IMG/VR virus record: IMGVR_UViG_3300031772_004865
Location: 13,391 to 77,390 of that record
DNA from: a virus
Strand: one strand, 5' to 3'
Length of the DNA: 64,000 nt
A program made the translations under genes and the position numbers. This document shows positions 2,202-47,928 of this stretch, piece by piece; the stretch's first letter is position 1; each line of letters opens with the position of its first letter. Below the pieces are notes generated by a model. That model ran no database searches. It worked only from the letters and a program-made list of their open reading frames with translations, and was not told where the DNA came from.

Positions 2202-2780
2202 TTACTCCTTTTTGAGTCCAGCAAAAGCTAATAATAAAGCATCTGCAATATTGTCATCAATAATTTTCTCTTCTACTACATTACTTATCCATCTCATTAT
2301 TTCTTTTTTCTTATCTTTAGGTTTTGTACCCTTTCCTAAATGAGATTGAAATCCTACTAATTTACGTGCTGTAATAGGAAAGATTATTTTTCTTTCATTA
2401 AATCTATCATACAATTCGGCATAAGCAATTCCCTGTAATGCTCTCAAAAATCCAAAAGTAACTACATTCATCTTTAAAAATGAATTCTCTAATACTAATA
2501 ACATCGTTACTCCTTCGGGATTTGATAATTGTGTTTTTACCTCTTTTCTGATTAACTTTAAAAATGATTCTAAATGAGCATCGTATTTTTCATTTTTATC
2601 TTCTAAATCTTTTGGTAATGTAGGTAATTGTATTATAAATGTTTTTATCCATAATTTCTTTTTAAAAATAGAAATCATTGCGATTCCAGATTTAGTAGCA
2701 GTATCAATAGCAAGACAAAATATATTATCCTGAAGTTTAAATCCAAGATTCTTTTCAAGTTTCTTTAATGATTTAATCAT
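2202..2780 (-). CDS. ruvC: RuvC-like Holliday junction resolvase
   Basis: LAIDTAT.SGIA, VLE, PITARK, DNIADALLLA catalytic pattern. Confidence 0.8.
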   Translation of the reverse strand: MIKSLKKLEKNLGFKLQDNIFCLAIDTATKSGIAMISIFKKKLWIKTFIIQLPTLPKDLEDKNEKYDAHLESFLKLIRKEVKTQLSNPEGVTMLLVLENSFLKMNVVTFGFLRALQGIAYAELYDRFNERKIIFPITARKLVGFQSHLGKGTKPKDKKKEIMRWISNVVEEKIIDDNIADALLLAFAGLKKE

Positions 2781-2970: not shown

Positions 2971-3810
2971 TTATTGTGCTTTTCCTTTTTTGTTTATATT
3001 TAATCCTTTAATTTCGTAAGAAGCATCATAATTAATATTATCTCCTTTTGGATAGGGCAATATTTTCCATTTAAGTGCTGCTCTCATTTCTTTCTTTTGT
3101 TTATAATTGCCAAGAAACATCAAATATCGGTGTTTTGGTGTAACTTTTATCGGTTCATAACCATTTTTTATAGCATTTTCTATACTTCCAGTACCTAATC
3201 TATTAAATATTACTTTCCTATGATACATTTTTCCATCTTTTCTAAATTCAATATCCCCACAACCCATTCCAGTATATAACCAATTAAGTGCCTGATAAAT
3301 ATAACCATGATGTCCTTGTCCACTATCAGAATAAGAAATAACTGTTATTGGTTGGGGCAATAACTTTAAACAAGAACTAACAAAAAAAGACAAAGTGTTT
3401 TTTGGTAATAATTCGTTTACAATTAATCGGTTAAGTTCTATACACCGATAATTTCCTAGTAAATTATTTAAAGAATTATTTGCACTCATTCCAAAGGTAC
3501 AAACTCCTTGCAAAATATTATTTTTATTATAAAGACCATAAGAATAAATGATAATAGCAGGAATTCTATGTGCATAGTGTTTATTTAAAAACCACTCATA
3601 AGTTAATTTCTTATCAATATTTTTAACAGAAAAATCTAATTTATTAAAATCATATACTTCTTCTTTACGTTCTTTTTTAATTGGAGCGGAGTTAGCGACT
3701 TGCACGCTACTCTCGGAACTGGAAGTTCCGCATGTCTTTTTCGACACTTCCCCTGCGAATTTAGTTTTAAGTTTTAATAATTCTTCATCACTTAATTTAG
3801 ATAAATCCAT
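2971..3810 (-). CDS. mom: Mom-like (GNAT-fold) DNA adenine hypermodification enzyme
   Basis: HY, GVCTFG, IELNRL, SFFVS, ISYSDSGQGHHGYIYQALNWLYTG, KHRY, LPYPK are typical of Mu Mom-family proteins; start overlaps the polymerase stop (TAATG). Confidence 0.8.
   Translation of the reverse strand: MDLSKLSDEELLKLKTKFAGEVSKKTCGTSSSESSVQVANSAPIKKERKEEVYDFNKLDFSVKNIDKKLTYEWFLNKHYAHRIPAIIIYSYGLYNKNNILQGVCTFGMSANNSLNNLLGNYRCIELNRLIVNELLPKNTLSFFVSSCLKLLPQPITVISYSDSGQGHHGYIYQALNWLYTGMGCGDIEFRKDGKMYHRKVIFNRLGTGSIENAIKNGYEPIKVTPKHRYLMFLGNYKQKKEMRAALKWKILPYPKGDNINYDASYEIKGLNINKKGKAQ
3682..3756 (-). tRNA. Non-canonical tRNA-Gly(UCC)-like element nested in the mom-like CDS
   Basis: 75 nt: GCAGGGG AA GTGT CGAAAAAG ACAT G CGGAA CT-TCC-AG TTCCG AGAG TAGCG TGCAAGT CGCTA ACTCCGC T CCA; canonical arm spacing, paired D/anticodon/T stems, U73, encoded CCA; acceptor stem has 2 mismatches. 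Confidence 0.8.
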
Positions 3811-6800
3811 TAAATTAATCCTCTTCTTTTAAGTTCTTCATTAATTTCTTTTTCGGTAAGATTATCCTGTTTCTTTGTTTTCTTTACTTTAATTTCTTTA
3901 ATCAATCCCAAATCCCAGCCTAATGCTTCAAAAATATTCTCACACTTTCCTATAATAGTCTTATCTATCATTTTCTTCCAATTTATATTTTTTACATGGT
4001 CAAATTGTTCTTCGTTATACGCAAGTACATTTTTATCTATTTCTTTTTCACTTGACTTTTCTTCTTTTTCTCCAGTATCTTTATTCTTCATACTTCTTGT
4101 TGCTCTACGAATTGCTTTTCCAAAAGGTTCTACATACAAATAATAAAATGTATCTCCTGCAACTTTATTAAATCCACATAATTCTTTTGAATATTCTAAT
4201 GCTCTGGTAAAAATAGGAGGAGATTTATAAACTGTAGTATTACTTATTTTACAAGGGAATCCAATTTCTGTAATAGATACGGTCTTAATCGCTTCTTTTT
4301 GTGAAACGATAAATTCTACAATCGCCTCTTGTGATTCATTATCGAGTATTTTATCTATTAATTTAGTTTGAAATTCTTGCATAAATTTACTGCTATCTTT
4401 TCTTTTTGCCTCAATTCCTTTTACTTCTATCTTTAATTTATTATCTTTGGTTCTTAATCTTCCTTTATAATGACAAAGTGCTACAATCAAAATCTGTTCA
4501 TATTTCCCTTCATAATCGAATTCAATTCCTGTTTTTTCTTTATTATATTTTTCTTTTGCCCATTGTTGAACTAATTGATTACATAATTCTAAAGGATTTT
4601 CTTTTGCTATTACCATAACTGAATCGGTATCCAAATAAATTACTTTTACACTACGCTTTCCTAATTCAATTTCAATGTAGTGTAACAAATCTCTAACTAT
4701 TGAAGTAATCGCACTTGCTATATTTACATTATAAAGTCTAAAAACTTTTAATGCAGTTACTCCAAATAATGAATTCACTAATGCTTTTACTGCATCGTAT
4801 TTCATTTGGAGGTCTTTTGCTTCAGGAGTTTCGGGGTCTAATGATTTAAGTTGTTTCTTTAAATAATCTTTTTTGATTATTAACTTCCTGGCTAATGTAG
4901 GTAATAAAGCATTTGAATTTTGTTTAAAATAAACAGGATACTTTACTTCATTAGTTTCTCGGTCAGTAATATCGATTTTCAATTCATTTTTATTAATGGT
5001 TAAATTAGCAATATCTAAACAAAAATCTATAATCGCCATTGGATAGGCAGAATTTCCAGAAATAAATACTTTCCCTTTTCTTCTCATAATTACAAAACCA
5101 TTTTTAACGGTTGGACACCATACTATACCAGAATATAATACTTTCTTTTTTTGCGGAGAATATAAATTAGTATAATGTTCATTATTAAAATAAACATTTT
5201 TTCTTCCATCTTCTTGGGTAGAATATCCTAATAATACTAATAAATATTGAAATCTATCTCTTGCTAATTTATCTTTAGCATTGTAATTATTTTTGTTCTT
5301 ATCTCCATCACCTTTCATTAATTCTTTAAATAAAATATTTAATTGTCTAGTAGATAGTTCTTTTAACATCCATAAGGGAATAACTTTATAATTATCTTCT
5401 AACTGGATGTAAGTTGAATAAAGCCATTTTAAATTCCAATCTAACTCTCCTTTTCTAATTCCTTTTCTATCATATTTAGAAACATTCCATTTCAATTGTT
5501 TAAATAATAAATCTATTTCCTTACAAAATACTGGATTGGCTTTAGAACTTTGACTAATATGATAAATATTACTTTTTACTCTACTATTGCCAAGTTCATT
5601 GTGTCCTTCTGTAATTATCCAAGCATGGATTTTTAATAATTCATCGGAAATAGGATAGTCTTTATTTCTTTTAAAGTTTGCAGAAAGAGGTAAAATAGTA
5701 TGATATGTATGAAAATCTTTAGCAAATGCGATTTGCCAAGAATCTTTTTTAGCTTTTTTATGATTATTATTAACAGTATATTTGTATAGAACTTTATGAT
5801 TCCAAGTTAATAATTGTTTAGTTTTACTATTTTCTAAACTATACATTTCCAAAATTTTAACTTTTTTAATATTTAAATATAGCATTTGTTGAAATTCAAT
5901 TAAATTTCTTTCTACACTAAAGGTTGCTAATTCTTCTTTTTCTTGTAACTCATTATATTTTTTCCATCCATCTATAGAAAGAATTTCTGTATCTTCAGAA
6001 TAGCATCCTAAATCAAGTTTATATAAATTTTCAAATCTTCCAGTATCACATTTTCTATAGGCTCCTTCGAACTCAATTTCTTCAATAAAATCTTCTCCAT
6101 AATGTTTGGAAGGAAGTACTATTCCTTTTGATTTAGCTTCTGATAATAACATCATATCTAATACTTTCGAATTCCAAACAATATCTTCCCAAAGACATTT
6201 TCCCATTCTACGAATTTCATCATAATAAGGGATAATCTTTTTTTCTTTCTCAATTCCAACCATTTTCTTGATGTCTTCTATGTTCTTCTCTTTTATTTCT
6301 TCAGTAATTTGACTAAAATCTGCTTTTTTATTTAAAGGAGTATTTAAGTATTTATGAGCAATAGAATCCAAAGCATAAGATACTTCTCCTTTATAAATTT
6401 TCTTAAATAAATCCAAATAATCTAATATACTTATTCCTGTAGGATAAGGAATCTCGTCTTCTTTCCTACCGTATCTCATCTTACTTATTGGAGAAATTAA
6501 TTCTGCTAATTCTAAATTCCATAATCTTTTTATCCGAGCAGCCAAATAAGGATAATCAAATTGGACAAAATTCCAACCTAAAATAAGGTCGGGTTGAGTA
6601 TCTTTAATATAACGAATTGCATTTTTTAATAAATCATCTTCAGCCATTTCTAATTTATCTTGTTTGTAATCCAATTTTTCAAATATTAAATCTTCAAGAT
6701 AATCTTTAATAAACCAATTTCGGATGGTTTTTTCTAATGAATTATAAATAGAAATTGAAGTAATTGTTTTATCGGGATTAAGATAAGAAGGCAATTCTTT

Positions 6801-7130
6801 TGTTTGAATTTCAATATCAATAAATAAATATTTAGTTGGAGAAGGAAGAATTTCACTTACCTTATCAATCATGTAACGTTTTGGATAAATAACATCTGCC
6901 TCATAAGAAGTATCTGTTTTCCGTCTTTTTATTTCTCCAGGTTCTCTGCAAGTAATTTTCGATACTTTTTTTCCGTCGATTGTTTGATAAATTCCTTTCG
7001 GGTCCTCTTCATAAAAATAAGGTTTAAAAATAGTATCCTGCATAATAGTAAGAGAACCATCCTTCTGTCTATTAAAAAGATATATCTTATTTCCTATATT
7101 GGCTATATTTTTTAAAGGATAATTAAGCAT
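3810..7130 (-). CDS. polB: Family B DNA polymerase with intein
   Basis: Exo motifs FIDIE and GWNFVQFDYPY; motif A YKLDLG^SAYP, motif B KALVNSLFG, motif C YLDTDS, KGIE. Confidence 0.95.
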   Translation of the reverse strand: MLNYPLKNIANIGNKIYLFNRQKDGSLTIMQDTIFKPYFYEEDPKGIYQTIDGKKVSKITCREPGEIKRRKTDTSYEADVIYPKRYMIDKVSEILPSPTKYLFIDIEIQTKELPSYLNPDKTITSISIYNSLEKTIRNWFIKDYLEDLIFEKLDYKQDKLEMAEDDLLKNAIRYIKDTQPDLILGWNFVQFDYPYLAARIKRLWNLELAELISPISKMRYGRKEDEIPYPTGISILDYLDLFKKIYKGEVSYALDSIAHKYLNTPLNKKADFSQITEEIKEKNIEDIKKMVGIEKEKKIIPYYDEIRRMGKCLWEDIVWNSKVLDMMLLSEAKSKGIVLPSKHYGEDFIEEIEFEGAYRKCDTGRFENLYKLDLGCYSEDTEILSIDGWKKYNELQEKEELATFSVERNLIEFQQMLYLNIKKVKILEMYSLENSKTKQLLTWNHKVLYKYTVNNNHKKAKKDSWQIAFAKDFHTYHTILPLSANFKRNKDYPISDELLKIHAWIITEGHNELGNSRVKSNIYHISQSSKANPVFCKEIDLLFKQLKWNVSKYDRKGIRKGELDWNLKWLYSTYIQLEDNYKVIPLWMLKELSTRQLNILFKELMKGDGDKNKNNYNAKDKLARDRFQYLLVLLGYSTQEDGRKNVYFNNEHYTNLYSPQKKKVLYSGIVWCPTVKNGFVIMRRKGKVFISGNSAYPMAIIDFCLDIANLTINKNELKIDITDRETNEVKYPVYFKQNSNALLPTLARKLIIKKDYLKKQLKSLDPETPEAKDLQMKYDAVKALVNSLFGVTALKVFRLYNVNIASAITSIVRDLLHYIEIELGKRSVKVIYLDTDSVMVIAKENPLELCNQLVQQWAKEKYNKEKTGIEFDYEGKYEQILIVALCHYKGRLRTKDNKLKIEVKGIEAKRKDSSKFMQEFQTKLIDKILDNESQEAIVEFIVSQKEAIKTVSITEIGFPCKISNTTVYKSPPIFTRALEYSKELCGFNKVAGDTFYYLYVEPFGKAIRRATRSMKNKDTGEKEEKSSEKEIDKNVLAYNEEQFDHVKNINWKKMIDKTIIGKCENIFEALGWDLGLIKEIKVKKTKKQDNLTEKEINEELKRRGLI
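5052..6005 (-). mobile_element. Intein (318 aa, LAGLIDADG-type) in polymerase motif A
   Basis: Starts CYSEDTEIL, ends VWCPTVKNG...FISGN before extein Ser; block B TWNHKV; endonuclease-like AWIITEG and LMKGDG; removal restores DLGSAYP. Confidence 0.92.
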
Positions 7131-7354
7131 TATTTCCCTTTATTGTATTCTTCAAACGCTTTATATAATCTTCCTTCTTTAGGTAATTTAGTCCAATCAT
7201 TATTTATACTTAATAATAATTGTTTGCATTTATTATCACAATGTAAAGTTTCTTTAATCCCTTTCATTGAAAAACAATTAACCAATTCATTTGGGTCTAT
7301 CGGTAAAATATACTTCCCACAAACATCACAAATTGCTCCTGAACTTGTTATCAT
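7130..7354 (-). CDS. Small Zn-binding hypothetical protein
   Basis: CxxC ... HCxxxC; AGGAG RBS; coupled to the polymerase. Confidence 0.6.
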   Translation of the reverse strand: MITSSGAICDVCGKYILPIDPNELVNCFSMKGIKETLHCDNKCKQLLLSINNDWTKLPKEGRLYKAFEEYNKGK

Positions 7355-7363
7355 TCTATCTCC

Positions 7364-7744
7364 TTATTTATAATCAATAATTAAATGAGCAGGAATCCAA
7401 ATTGCATCCCTCCCATTATCTATTAATAAATTCATCATTTTATTTGCTCCAACGGGGTTCATGCTATGAATATAACAAAGTGTATCTACTTGTAAATTAT
7501 TTTCAATAAGTTTTTTTATAAATTGATAACCTGTATTTTCTTCTGAAGAATCAACCCAATGACGACTATCCAAATCATAGTCAAGCATCATTACTTTAAA
7601 TTCATTAAGCAAACATGATTCATACGCATCCTTAACATTATCAAAAATAAATAATTCTTGATTTTTAAATAATTGTTTAAATTTTTCTATTCTTTCAAAA
7701 TTATCTTCGAGTATTAAAATTTTCATTTTAATTCTAATCCACAA
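7364..7744 (-). CDS. Cyclic-phosphate-processing receiver-like domain protein
   Basis: KILILED, LDYDL, TGY, IHSMNPVGA pattern; true start probably the internal MKILIL. Confidence 0.7.
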   Translation of the reverse strand: MWIRIKMKILILEDNFERIEKFKQLFKNQELFIFDNVKDAYESCLLNEFKVMMLDYDLDSRHWVDSSEENTGYQFIKKLIENNLQVDTLCYIHSMNPVGANKMMNLLIDNGRDAIWIPAHLIIDYK

Positions 7745-8355
7745 TTACCACATTGAGTTGATAAATTATTTTTTAGTGGACCATCACATTGACATGGAAT
7801 CCCATCAGTATTATCTACAGGAGTTATTAAATCTTTAGTAGTTGCAATATAATCTGCGGTATAAACACAAAGTTCTAATAAGGTATAATCTTTTATCTCT
7901 TTTTTTATTATTTGAGGAGTCCACAATCCCATGTGAAAACAAATACAATTATTTATTTTTTGTAGTATTTCATCATTAAATTCGTCGCTAATTATAAAAT
8001 AATTATGAGCATATACAGGATGATTTTCATAATCGGCATAAGTTATTTTAGGGTCTTCTTTTGGAGAAGGAACTTTAGCAATATCATGTAAAATAGTTGC
8101 AGATAAAACAATATCTCTATCTATTCCTTTTATTCCCCATCCATCGCACAATCTATTGGCAATATAAATAGTTCTTTTTACATGAATTAATAATCCACTT
8201 TTTATGCAAGTACATGTTGGATGATATTTTCCTGTAGAAGAAGCCATTCCAATAAAAAAATAATTTGGAGTATTATTTAAAGTTGATTTGGTAAAATTTT
8301 TAATTTCTTGATTTTGAATTAAATTAATTTCTTGTTCTAATACATTCTTATTCAT
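7723..8355 (-). CDS. HD-domain phosphohydrolase
   Basis: ASSTGKYH, GLLIH, LHDIAK, H, HMG, AD. Confidence 0.8.
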   Translation of the reverse strand: MNKNVLEQEINLIQNQEIKNFTKSTLNNTPNYFFIGMASSTGKYHPTCTCIKSGLLIHVKRTIYIANRLCDGWGIKGIDRDIVLSATILHDIAKVPSPKEDPKITYADYENHPVYAHNYFIISDEFNDEILQKINNCICFHMGLWTPQIIKKEIKDYTLLELCVYTADYIATTKDLITPVDNTDGIPCQCDGPLKNNLSTQCGNCGLELK

Positions 8356-9307
8356 TTTATTTCTTTATCCTCTTTAAAATAATAATCATATAAACTATAC
8401 TTAATATTAGAATATACACTATCAAAAGTTTGTTTATTTAATTGACAGAACTTATGTAAATTTTCAAAAGGAATAGTCATAGTTTCCTTCCCATAAGTAA
8501 TTTGTAATGGTTTTTTCTCATCAATACATTTTTGAATAATATAACTACGAACAGAGGCAAATCCTTTATAAAGTTTTTTGATTTTAACTTTTTTCATTTT
8601 ATTTTAATTATATATTTTTTAATTAAACATTCTATTATTAAACAAAATATGCCGAAATTAGAAATTCTAAAATCTATCCATAATTTTCCATTTTTAAAAT
8701 AACTCTTAACATCTTTAAAATAAAAAGGTAATTTAGCCATTATAATCCTATCTGTAAACGTTCTTGAATAATTTTATAATCTTTATCTTCATGTAATCTA
8801 TAGGTTAAATAAGCAATAACATTTCTGTTATCTTGATTATTTTCTTGGAAATCTACTCTTAACAATTCTACTATATAACCTATATAATAGTTTGGCTCGT
8901 TAATTTGTTTATTAAATAAATCAAATACATAATTTTTTACTGATTCTTTATAATTTTGGGCTTTTACCATTTGTTCTTGAGAAACTTCTATTCTATGAAT
9001 AAACATTATTTCCTCTTTTTTAATTTAGGACAAAATTTTTGTTCACATAACTGTGCTTTATTTTTTGGATGTATACAAAAAATAGAATTATCATATTGAC
9101 ATTGTTTAAAATTACATTTTTTCATTTTTAATTTACTCCTATTTTAATCTTTAAATGCTAATACAATTTTAGCACAATCAGATTTATTATATAAAGTATT
9201 GTACTTATCCACTTCTAATGCTTTCTGTTTTGCTTCTATTTCATTTTCAGCAAATACATCTAACTCTGTTTTACCTACAACTTTATAAATATGTATATGA
9301 TATTTCA

Positions 9308-47280: not shown

Positions 47281-47928
<648 letters not shown>

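Follow-up and report, generated by a model that had tools for sequence, protein, structure and literature searches.

The DNA analysed here is a 64-kb stretch (referred to below as the window) of a 77.4-kb IMG/VR virus record, IMGVR_UViG_3300031772_004865, and it contains an open reading frame (ORF) of the Mom family of DNA hypermodification enzymes in whose 5' part a tRNA-Gly(UCC)-like cloverleaf of 75 nt is encoded in frame. The ORF lies on the minus strand at 2971..3810 and encodes 279 amino acids (aa); the element lies on the same strand at 3682..3756 and makes up Mom codons 19-43, that is, ORF nt 55-129. Both are part of a replication module on the window minus strand, with the order primase, helicase/recombinase and nucleases, family B DNA polymerase (PolB), Mom-family ORF and RuvC-like resolvase (2202..2780). 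The PolB gene (3810..7130, minus) is directly upstream of the Mom ORF, a placement shared with the related loci L083, L104 and L112, and its stop codon overlaps the ATG of mom (TAATG). It is probable that the two genes share a transcript and that their translation is coupled; promoter-like sites around the mom locus occur at chance level (10 seen, 9.1 expected).

The Mom-family protein and its tRNA-like element

The Pfam Mom model (PF25680) matches the ORF product with an E value of 9.8e-36 and 123.7 bits (cut-off 27.1), covering aa 59-255 only; PHROG 1384 matches it at E 7.5e-53, and Mu Mom (8bv8) at E 1.6e-10 by phmmer. In the phmmer alignment to 8bv8, residues H58, Y59, R111, S124, D149 and Y159, which have a demonstrated role in Mu Mom, are H78, Y79, R128, S141, D162 and Y172 here, and R151 of Mu Mom, another residue with such a role, aligns with G164. 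Along the ORF, a leader of codons 1-18 (MDLSKLSDEELLKLKTKF; 3757..3810, minus), which in related phages forms one conserved 5' module together with the element, is followed by the element itself, which encodes residues 19-43 (AGEVSKKTCGTSSSESSVQVANSAP; 3756..3682), and then by a linker and the Mom catalytic domain of GNAT fold (2971..3681, minus), to which the PF25680, PHROG 1384 and 8bv8 matches refer. Most of 1220 Mom homologues are approximately 220 aa long and are without the first 45-55 residues. In an AlphaFold2 (AF2) model based on the family alignment, aa 16-52 have a predicted local distance difference test score (pLDDT) below 50 and no secondary structure, and aa 55-255 are confident. 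A protein search with residues 1-58 only identified ten further Mom proteins that share the N-extension, which is 72-98% identical among those proteins, compared with 40-59% in the catalytic domains. Among the Logan homologues P0003, P0038, P0121, P0122, P0126 and P0127, the most divergent peptide is that of P0038. A second Mom-family paralogue, 209 aa long, is encoded elsewhere on the same phage, beyond the window (G000:C1:9648-10277, minus; equal to L160 849-1478) and ~6.7 kb from the first Mom gene; it has neither the N-terminal extension nor the tRNA-like element.

A sequence-only reading of the window had described codons 19-43 as a GC-rich stretch folding into a 75-nt cloverleaf, and each feature that it had listed was recovered at its place. 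The G+C content of the stretch is 55%, against 28% for the window. Element position p corresponds to window coordinate 3757-p. The acceptor stem of 7 bp is formed by the 5' strand GCAGGGG (positions 1-7; 3750..3756, minus) and the 3' strand ACUCCGC, which is followed by a discriminator U and an encoded CCA (positions 65-75 in all; 3682..3692, minus), and it consists of G1-C72, C2-G71, A3.C70, G4-C69, G5.U68, G6-C67 and G7.A66. The D arm (positions 10-25; 3732..3747, minus) has a 4-bp stem and an 8-nt loop, CGAAAAAG, with no G18G19, and C14-G21 may form a fifth D-stem pair. The anticodon arm (positions 27-43; 3714..3730, minus) has a 5-bp stem and the loop CUUCCAG, with the anticodon UCC at 3721-3723; positions 32 and 38 are Watson-Crick paired in every variant described below, which leaves a UUCCA pentaloop. 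After a variable loop of 4 nt, the T arm (positions 48-64; 3693..3709, minus) has a 5-bp stem and the loop UGCAAGU, with G55 (G-UGC in place of G-UUC). Our own covariance model of such elements scores 94.8 bits at 3682-3756, its sole match in the window, and the centroid fold of a 205-nt context retains the cloverleaf and no other structure. The stability of the single-sequence fold is modest (minimum free energy (MFE) -26.4 kcal/mol, z -2.6), with 4 of 200 shuffles as stable. On the plus strand, the complement of the anticodon arm and the D-loop A-run (3714-3739) reads like an intrinsic terminator; this antisense site is probably incidental.

The element keeps the cloverleaf format of tRNAs, with stems of 7, 4, 5 and 5 bp and anticodon and T loops of 7 nt, and the window copy holds G1-C72, C2-G71, U73, C35 and C36. 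The sequence-only reading had taken these base pairs and nucleotides to be identity elements of glycyl-tRNA synthetase (GlyRS), and the same set is indeed cited as the GlyRS determinants of Staphylococcus aureus tRNAGly (PMC7826273). C35, C36 and the U discriminator also occur in L017 and L015, two divergent copies that were found by the model and not by pattern. At the tertiary positions of tRNA, the element has A8 instead of U8, C14 instead of A14, no G18G19 and G55 instead of U55, while U54, C56, A58 and G53-C61 are kept. The always-paired 32:38 was considered as a proof of non-decoding and was dropped, since Watson-Crick-type 32-38 pairs accompany G+C-rich anticodons in tRNAs (PMC6720975); as a departure from decoding tRNAs, the covarying 32:38 pair is suggestive only.

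When ARAGORN and the Rfam tRNA model were applied to the segment, a check that the sequence-only reading had proposed, neither recognised the element. ARAGORN made no call on the window at default settings, nor for the window copy with thresholds lowered as far as 70%, and its default settings called no element in six related loci. RF00005 gave nothing at E<=10 for the element in searches of 91 nt and 111 nt and had no match in four whole phage records; no tRNA was detected in the 77.4-kb record. In total, the Rfam tRNA model and default ARAGORN reject all 19 copies of the element, which speaks against a decoding tRNA. The best Rfam match of one relative is Tymo_tRNA-like, a non-significant match (15.5 bits, E 0.2) in which both share a GUGCAA T loop. 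At 80% thresholds, ARAGORN called 16 of the 19 copies as tRNA-Gly(tcc) in the exact 75-nt register; false calls arise about once per 2.5 kb at these thresholds, and the relaxed calls carry weight only because of the exact register and identity. Over 729 kb, our element model found one genuine tRNA-Gly(UCC), at 40 bits, and no other tRNA. Based on the relaxed ARAGORN calls, on this match and on the canonical T loop of L114 (UUCAAGU), the element is descended from tRNA-Gly. Across the 33 genomic Mom loci, default ARAGORN makes a single call, a canonical tRNA-Gly(UCC) at L132 52-124, with a Mom homologue 2.9 kb downstream; the contig has been binned as Nanoarchaeota.

Covariation and selection on the RNA structure

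By DNA pattern scans of viral and metagenome contigs, 15 distinct 75-nt elements were gathered. The scan pattern fixed columns 7-11, 13-18, 33-37 and 70-75 and left the covarying stem columns all free; therefore, the constancy of the D loop, the anticodon loop and the CCA in the 15 variants is not independent evidence. In the first relative (L001), the D, anticodon and T loops are identical to those of the window copy, four of the five anticodon-stem pairs are changed on both sides, and G3-C70 stands where the window has A.C. Over the 15 elements, 95.4% of the stem cells are paired, compared with 76.9% in shuffles and 35-51% in slid registers; changes on both sides occur in 14 of the 23 pairs, and the covariation score was reached by none of 500 shuffles. 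G1-C72 and C2-G71 are invariant, in columns (1-2) that the search did not fix, and covariation links acceptor positions 3-6 to 66-69. At pair 12:23, 13 variants have G-C and two have A-U, and all six anticodon-arm pairs change on both sides, including 32:38 (C-G in 10, A-U in 4 and U-A in 1). The cloverleaf is the MFE fold (20/21 pairs) in 14 of the 15 variants, the window copy being the exception. The stem cells, read on the sense strand, include 18 G.U and one A.C, so the sense strand is the RNA; an RNA of the antisense strand was considered and was rejected on the same counts. Finally, identity between phages ends exactly at the CCA, both at the Mom loci and in a pair of loci (L111 and L119) in which the downstream genes differ. 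Taken together, the covariation and the sharp ends indicate that the cloverleaf is a genuine RNA structure under selection, with boundaries at G1 and the CCA.

The window copy is distinguished from the other variants by its acceptor stem. The sequence-only reading had cautioned that A3.C70 and G7.A66 could be marks of a decaying copy. For G7.A66 this does not hold, as the mismatch is found in 15 of 15 variants and is a feature of the clade, but for A3.C70, which is unique to the window copy among the 15 and sits in the weakest of them, the caution stands. The 5' strand GCAGGGG is of a type that elsewhere pairs with ACCCUGC (4 variants), and the 3' strand ACUCCGC is of a type that elsewhere pairs with GCGGAGG (6 variants); with its A3.C70 and G5.U68, the window stem looks like a mismatched hybrid of the two types, which would be obtainable by two transitions or by one crossover inside the element. 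The letters of the element are identical in contigs from three sediment runs; therefore, the hybrid stem did not arise by faulty assembly. In four sediment runs, Logan contigs often end inside the element (window 3700-3737), and the minor variants in those contigs (A56G, A57G and G50A/C51G) equal the letters of other family members. The element therefore appears to be common to several co-occurring phage strains, breaking their assemblies.

The same codons allow selection on the RNA to be separated from selection on the peptide. The codon-position entropy is flat in the element (0.58/0.59/0.54), whereas the neighbouring Mom domain of these phages has the signature of a coding sequence (0.66/0.44/0.83). 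The codon differences in the element are 897 non-synonymous versus 212 synonymous, single codons take up to seven residue types, and compensatory changes in the stems alter the encoded peptide. In addition, the element is untranslated in L015, and in L017 a stop codon lies in the frame of the Mom peptide. For the sequence-only reading it mattered whether conservation lies in the RNA structure rather than in the protein, and the compensatory changes, the flat entropy, the 897 versus 212 differences and the disorder of the peptide in the AF2 model all place it in the RNA. The substitution pattern thus indicates that the peptide is a passenger and that selection acts on the RNA.

Gene contexts and known systems

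The search for comparable folds beside other Mom-family genes, which the sequence-only reading had asked for, was positive: 17 distinct variants turned up, and their contexts are of at least five kinds. In several subgroups of Mom, the element is in frame and located at the 5' end. In L095, a complete genome of 101.6 kb with direct terminal repeats and one copy of the element, the element is an in-frame linker of a PolB-Mom fusion ORF of 1066 aa (4181-7381, minus), ~800 codons from the start; no other tRNA or tRNA-like gene was detected in this complete 101.6-kb genome, and the fusion would tether the DNA modifier to the replicase. In L083, an 86-kb relative, the element occurs twice, before two tandem Mom paralogues that share ~40% identity. 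These paralogues have near-identical 5' modules of 224 nt (6960-7183 and 8013-8236), made up of the last polB bases, the leader codons and the element, and near-identical 3' modules of 86 nt (7886-7971 and 8903-8988), and the layout looks like one of exchangeable cassettes. In L015 (887-3747), a DNA methyltransferase gene is followed by four Mom paralogues in tandem, and one untranslated element lies 28 nt before the first of these paralogues. The element of L017 overlaps the start of the Mom ORF, with the anticodon ACC, no CCA and a candidate start codon within the anticodon stem, and a split Mom is also preceded by the element. On the longer contigs the element is always beside a Mom or DruA-like gene, with the single exception of L104 (626-763, minus; contig of 3.6 kb), in which it is part of a mini-ORF of 45 aa, flanked by PolB and a RuvC-like gene, and no Mom domain follows. 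Either Mom has been deleted in L104, or the element is a carrier serving an enzyme encoded elsewhere.

Two DruA-like (PF14236) proteins, in L113 and L119, are preceded by the in-frame element. The sole sequence similarity of one DruA-like protein to the Mom profile is the translated element itself, and for the predicted fold of the L113 protein (pLDDT 84), the best of 350,542 PDB chains is Mu Mom 8bv8, ahead of generic GNATs. The element of L119 (DruA-like) is identical to that of L111 (Mom). A short hairpin lies 6 nt upstream of the element in both L111 (~335-360) and L119, reading ACAGG-UAAA-CCUGU in one contig and ACAGGG-UAAA-UCCCUGU in the other, and its stem is one pair longer in L119. 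The L083 flanks, the L111/L119 pair and the hybrid stem of the window suggest that the module is also a crossover point for swapping enzyme cassettes. An attP or integration site was considered as well and was rejected, as the locus lies within the replication module, the tRNA-like sequence is complete and not limited to a 3' fragment, and the stems show covariation from phage to phage.

A pattern scan of the genomic contig set found no element, and a blastn search of GenBank phages with the locus and the element as queries matched nothing. The PolB of the window phage has only about 26% identity with T4-like cyanophage polymerases. The PolB ORF (3810-7130, minus) is 1106 aa long, compared with 746 aa in one relative; it contains an insertion of ~330 aa (window ~5000-6010), inside a DxxSLYPS-type motif, that begins with Cys and ends with GN/S. 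The insertion resembles an intein whose middle part is homing-endonuclease-like; Pfam made no call of an intein domain in it at E<=0.001. Elsewhere in the window, a collagen-like Gly-X-Thr repeat gene (47281-47928, plus), with a 66-nt tandem repeat in 4.7 copies, is the most G+C-rich stretch (up to 68%), and its product is probably a tail-fibre protein.

Among known systems, the enzyme closest in kind is that of phage Mu. Mu Mom moves glycine from Gly-tRNAGly to N6 of adenine in double-stranded DNA (Silva et al., bioRxiv 2023; Nat Commun 2026, PMC13219725), which confirms for Mu Mom the use of Gly-tRNA as donor that the sequence-only reading had mentioned; it takes all three Escherichia coli isoacceptors and rejects Gly-tRNAAla (PMC13219725). 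The window Mom belongs to the same enzyme family (PF25680 and the 8bv8 match), and the Mu chemistry is presumed for it. On the other hand, Mu has no tRNA-like element and any host isoacceptor serves, and the window protein has G164 at the equivalent of R151. In Silva et al. (PMC13219725), tRNA-like RNAs, phage tRNA, DruA and the mom locus reported in 2011 (see below) are all unmentioned.

A second comparison is provided by the non-proteogenic tRNAGly of S. aureus (NP1, NP2 and NP3/NEW), which are glycine donors for FmhB, FemA and FemB, bind EF-Tu poorly and are preferred by FmhB (PMC7826273, PMC4574755). Their lineage is confined to staphylococci (PMC7826273), and they are without G18, G19, U55 and C56 (PMC4574755), which documents the loss of the D-loop GG that the sequence-only reading had pointed to. 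The window element resembles them in being a tRNA-Gly(UCC) in which the GlyRS determinants are kept and G18, G19 and U55 are gone; the likeness is an analogy of function, not membership. The staphylococcal tRNAs come from free-standing chromosomal genes, their acceptor is a peptidoglycan precursor and their function has been shown by experiment, whereas the window element lies inside an mRNA, keeps C56, has A8 and G7.A66, and has a presumed DNA acceptor and an inferred function.

The arrangement of a tRNA-Gly-like locus inside mom has been known since 2011. According to McMurdie et al. (BMC Genomics 2011), the first 150 bp of a mom homologue contain a conserved tRNA-Gly-like 'pseudo-tRNA' locus of 76 bp with the anticodon DCC (PMC3146451). 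The locus was found in ssrA-specific genomic islands of Dehalococcoides and in a deep-sea fosmid, and its 3' end is highly conserved (PMC3146451); no function was offered for it, and Mom was taken as a methylase-type resistance gene (PMC3146451). By description, the two loci are alike, each being a full cloverleaf of ~75 nt that a mom homologue contains in its first 150 bp (here nt 55-129, with UCC). The Dehalococcoides locus, however, is in integrative islands of a bacterium, and the window element is in the replication module of an AT-rich uncultured phage, coupled to PolB. No paper in the literature searched ties the 2011 mom locus to the use of Gly-tRNAGly by Mom.

A tRNA-shaped fold carried by a messenger also recalls the tRNA-like structure (TLS) of tymoviruses and the thrS operator. 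The tymovirus TLS is 3'-terminal, its acceptor contains a pseudoknot, and it is valylated without being released; the thrS operator imitates no more of tRNAThr than the anticodon arm, lies at the ribosome-binding site and serves autorepression by ThrRS. The window element differs from both in being a full cloverleaf within a coding region, with an internal CCA. Compared with the literature found, the new aspects are that the element occurs in a phage, that it is strictly dual-coding, in frame and coupled to PolB, that it has passed between Mom and DruA-like genes, and that a function is hypothesised for it.

A candidate glycyl carrier and its rivals

The observation from which this analysis started is confirmed, and its interpretation is supported in part. 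With moderate confidence, we take the element most likely to be a dedicated glycyl carrier that probably does not decode and that would have to be excised from the mom mRNA, because its structure is selected, the glycine identity set is kept, it travels with Mom-fold enzymes, and Mu Mom uses Gly-tRNAGly. In this proposal, the polB-mom transcript would fold locally into the cloverleaf, and host tRNA processing would cut a fraction of the transcripts, with RNase P acting at G1 and 3' trimming proceeding to the encoded CCA. The freed RNA would be glycylated by a host GlyRS of bacterial type via G1-C72, C2-G71, U73, C35 and C36, and the Mom-type GNAT would take the glycyl group from the CCA end to adenine N6 in phage DNA. 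Each transcript would then be either translated, giving a Mom protein with a disordered linker of 25 residues, or processed, giving a carrier and no Mom. As G18, G19, U55 and U8 are missing, the RNA would probably be accepted poorly by EF-Tu and the ribosome. It would be a private glycine carrier without competition from translation, as the staphylococcal tRNAGly are for the Fem transferases, and the second, element-free Mom paralogue of the phage could also be served by such a trans-acting RNA.

Several points weigh against this reading. The window copy is the weakest of the 15, with a cloverleaf energy of -13.5 kcal/mol compared with -19 to -26 elsewhere; in its MFE fold, only 13 of the 21 cloverleaf pairs survive and the CCA end is partly paired, since C71-C74 are able to pair with G4-G7. 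That the anticodon loop, the D loop and the CCA do not vary among the 15 variants was imposed by the search pattern, and the GlyRS determinants compared are those cited for S. aureus, from which the GlyRS type of the host may differ. The element was detected in 3 of 80 viral Mom loci (the 79 beyond the window yielded only L017 and L015) and, with our own models, in none of the 33 genomic Mom loci sampled; therefore, most Mom enzymes manage without it. No RNA run is among the sequencing runs listed as carrying the locus. Moreover, excision would destroy the mom message and, in L095, would deprive polB of its stop codon and mom of its start codon, so that the design looks costly and needs partial processing. 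Finally, all three host isoacceptors serve Mu Mom, and recognition is suggested to be mainly at the 3' end (PMC13219725), so a private carrier is not obviously needed.

The main rival, which we regard as unlikely yet deserving of attention, is that the element is a cis-acting tRNA mimic in the intact mom mRNA, where it would bind Mom (autorepression, with the RNA imitating the substrate) or GlyRS or recruit RNase P, and would never carry glycine; the RNase P variant might limit a potentially toxic enzyme. Mom of Mu is itself tightly regulated. The self-destructive nature of excision favours such a mimic, and so do the position of the element, downstream of the sole start codon and ahead of the catalytic domain, the candidate start codon within the anticodon stem of L017, and the travelling of leader codons and element as one 5' module. 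Against it, an internal copy has no free CCA-Gly end, which is thought to be the recognition target of Mom, and a translational operator needs neither the sharp CCA end nor the discriminator nor the GlyRS acceptor pairs, all of which are kept. The distribution is also difficult to accommodate, as one copy is intergenic before four Mom genes (L015), one lies mid-ORF some 800 codons from the start in the fusion of L095, and one is in the mini-ORF of L104, after which no Mom domain follows.

An ordinary decoding tRNA-Gly(UCC), which would supplement GGA/GGG reading in a genome of 28% G+C and stand beside mom by chance, is improbable. Phages often bring tRNAs that fit their own codon usage, and the element does have UCC in a 7-nt loop, U33, A37, an encoded CCA and a full cloverleaf; the Watson-Crick-type 32-38 pairs are compatible with such a role as well, occurring with G+C-rich anticodons (PMC6720975). 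However, 19 of 19 copies are rejected by Rfam and default ARAGORN, A8, the lack of G18G19 and G55 depart from decoding tRNAs, and the element sits inside an ORF. It is the sole tRNA-like gene in the complete genome of L095, and a helper for codon usage has no reason to stay beside Mom and DruA-like genes.

More doubtful still is that the element is a recombination linker for swapping Mom and DruA cassettes, or a decayed tRNA relic, with no present function as RNA. The L083 paralogues, framed by their identical 224-nt and 86-nt flanks, are in keeping with this, as are the identical element before a Mom gene and a DruA-like gene, the hybrid-looking acceptor stem of the window, the breaking of Logan contigs inside the element and the high identity of the N-extension (72-98%) relative to the Mom domains (40-59%). 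A homology block, however, needs identity, yet covariation is seen in 14 of the 23 pairs and the stems of different phages have diverged strongly, and a relic would lose its pairing, whereas 14 of the 15 variants still fold to the cloverleaf as MFE. A linker role is compatible with the glycyl-carrier reading alongside it, not in its place, and is largely refuted as the sole explanation. A further reading, in which selection acts on the 25 residues as a peptide linker or motif and the RNA folds only by coincidence, is already refuted: the frame is open in all ORF-embedded copies and the EVSK and AP residues are constant, but the entropy is flat, non-synonymous differences predominate (897 vs 212) with up to seven residue types per codon, AF2 pLDDT is below 50 over aa 16-52, and there are an untranslated copy (L015) and one with an in-frame stop (L017).

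Going beyond the glycyl-carrier reading, we tentatively entertain the possibility, somewhat less secure than that reading itself, of a portable hypermodification module of two parts, in which the transcript is split between Mom and a glycyl carrier and the carrier moves between Mom and DruA-like GNAT genes. Only in 2023-2026 was Mom recognised as a GNAT that moves glycine from a charged tRNA onto DNA, and the question at stake is how Mom-type enzymes select their tRNA and compete with EF-Tu for it. The element is a clean natural case of one sequence under both coding and RNA-structure constraint, with an either/or between enzyme and cofactor if the carrier reading is true. In that event, Mom of this phage would be the first DNA-modifying enzyme to bring its own aminoacyl carrier, the 'pseudo-tRNA' of 2011 would gain a function, and the idea of the staphylococcal non-proteogenic tRNAs would be extended to phages. 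It would also give a handle on the DruA family, relatives of a Druantia defence protein: if the carrier is shared with DruA-like genes, the DruA-like enzymes would be glycyl-tRNA-dependent transferases too.

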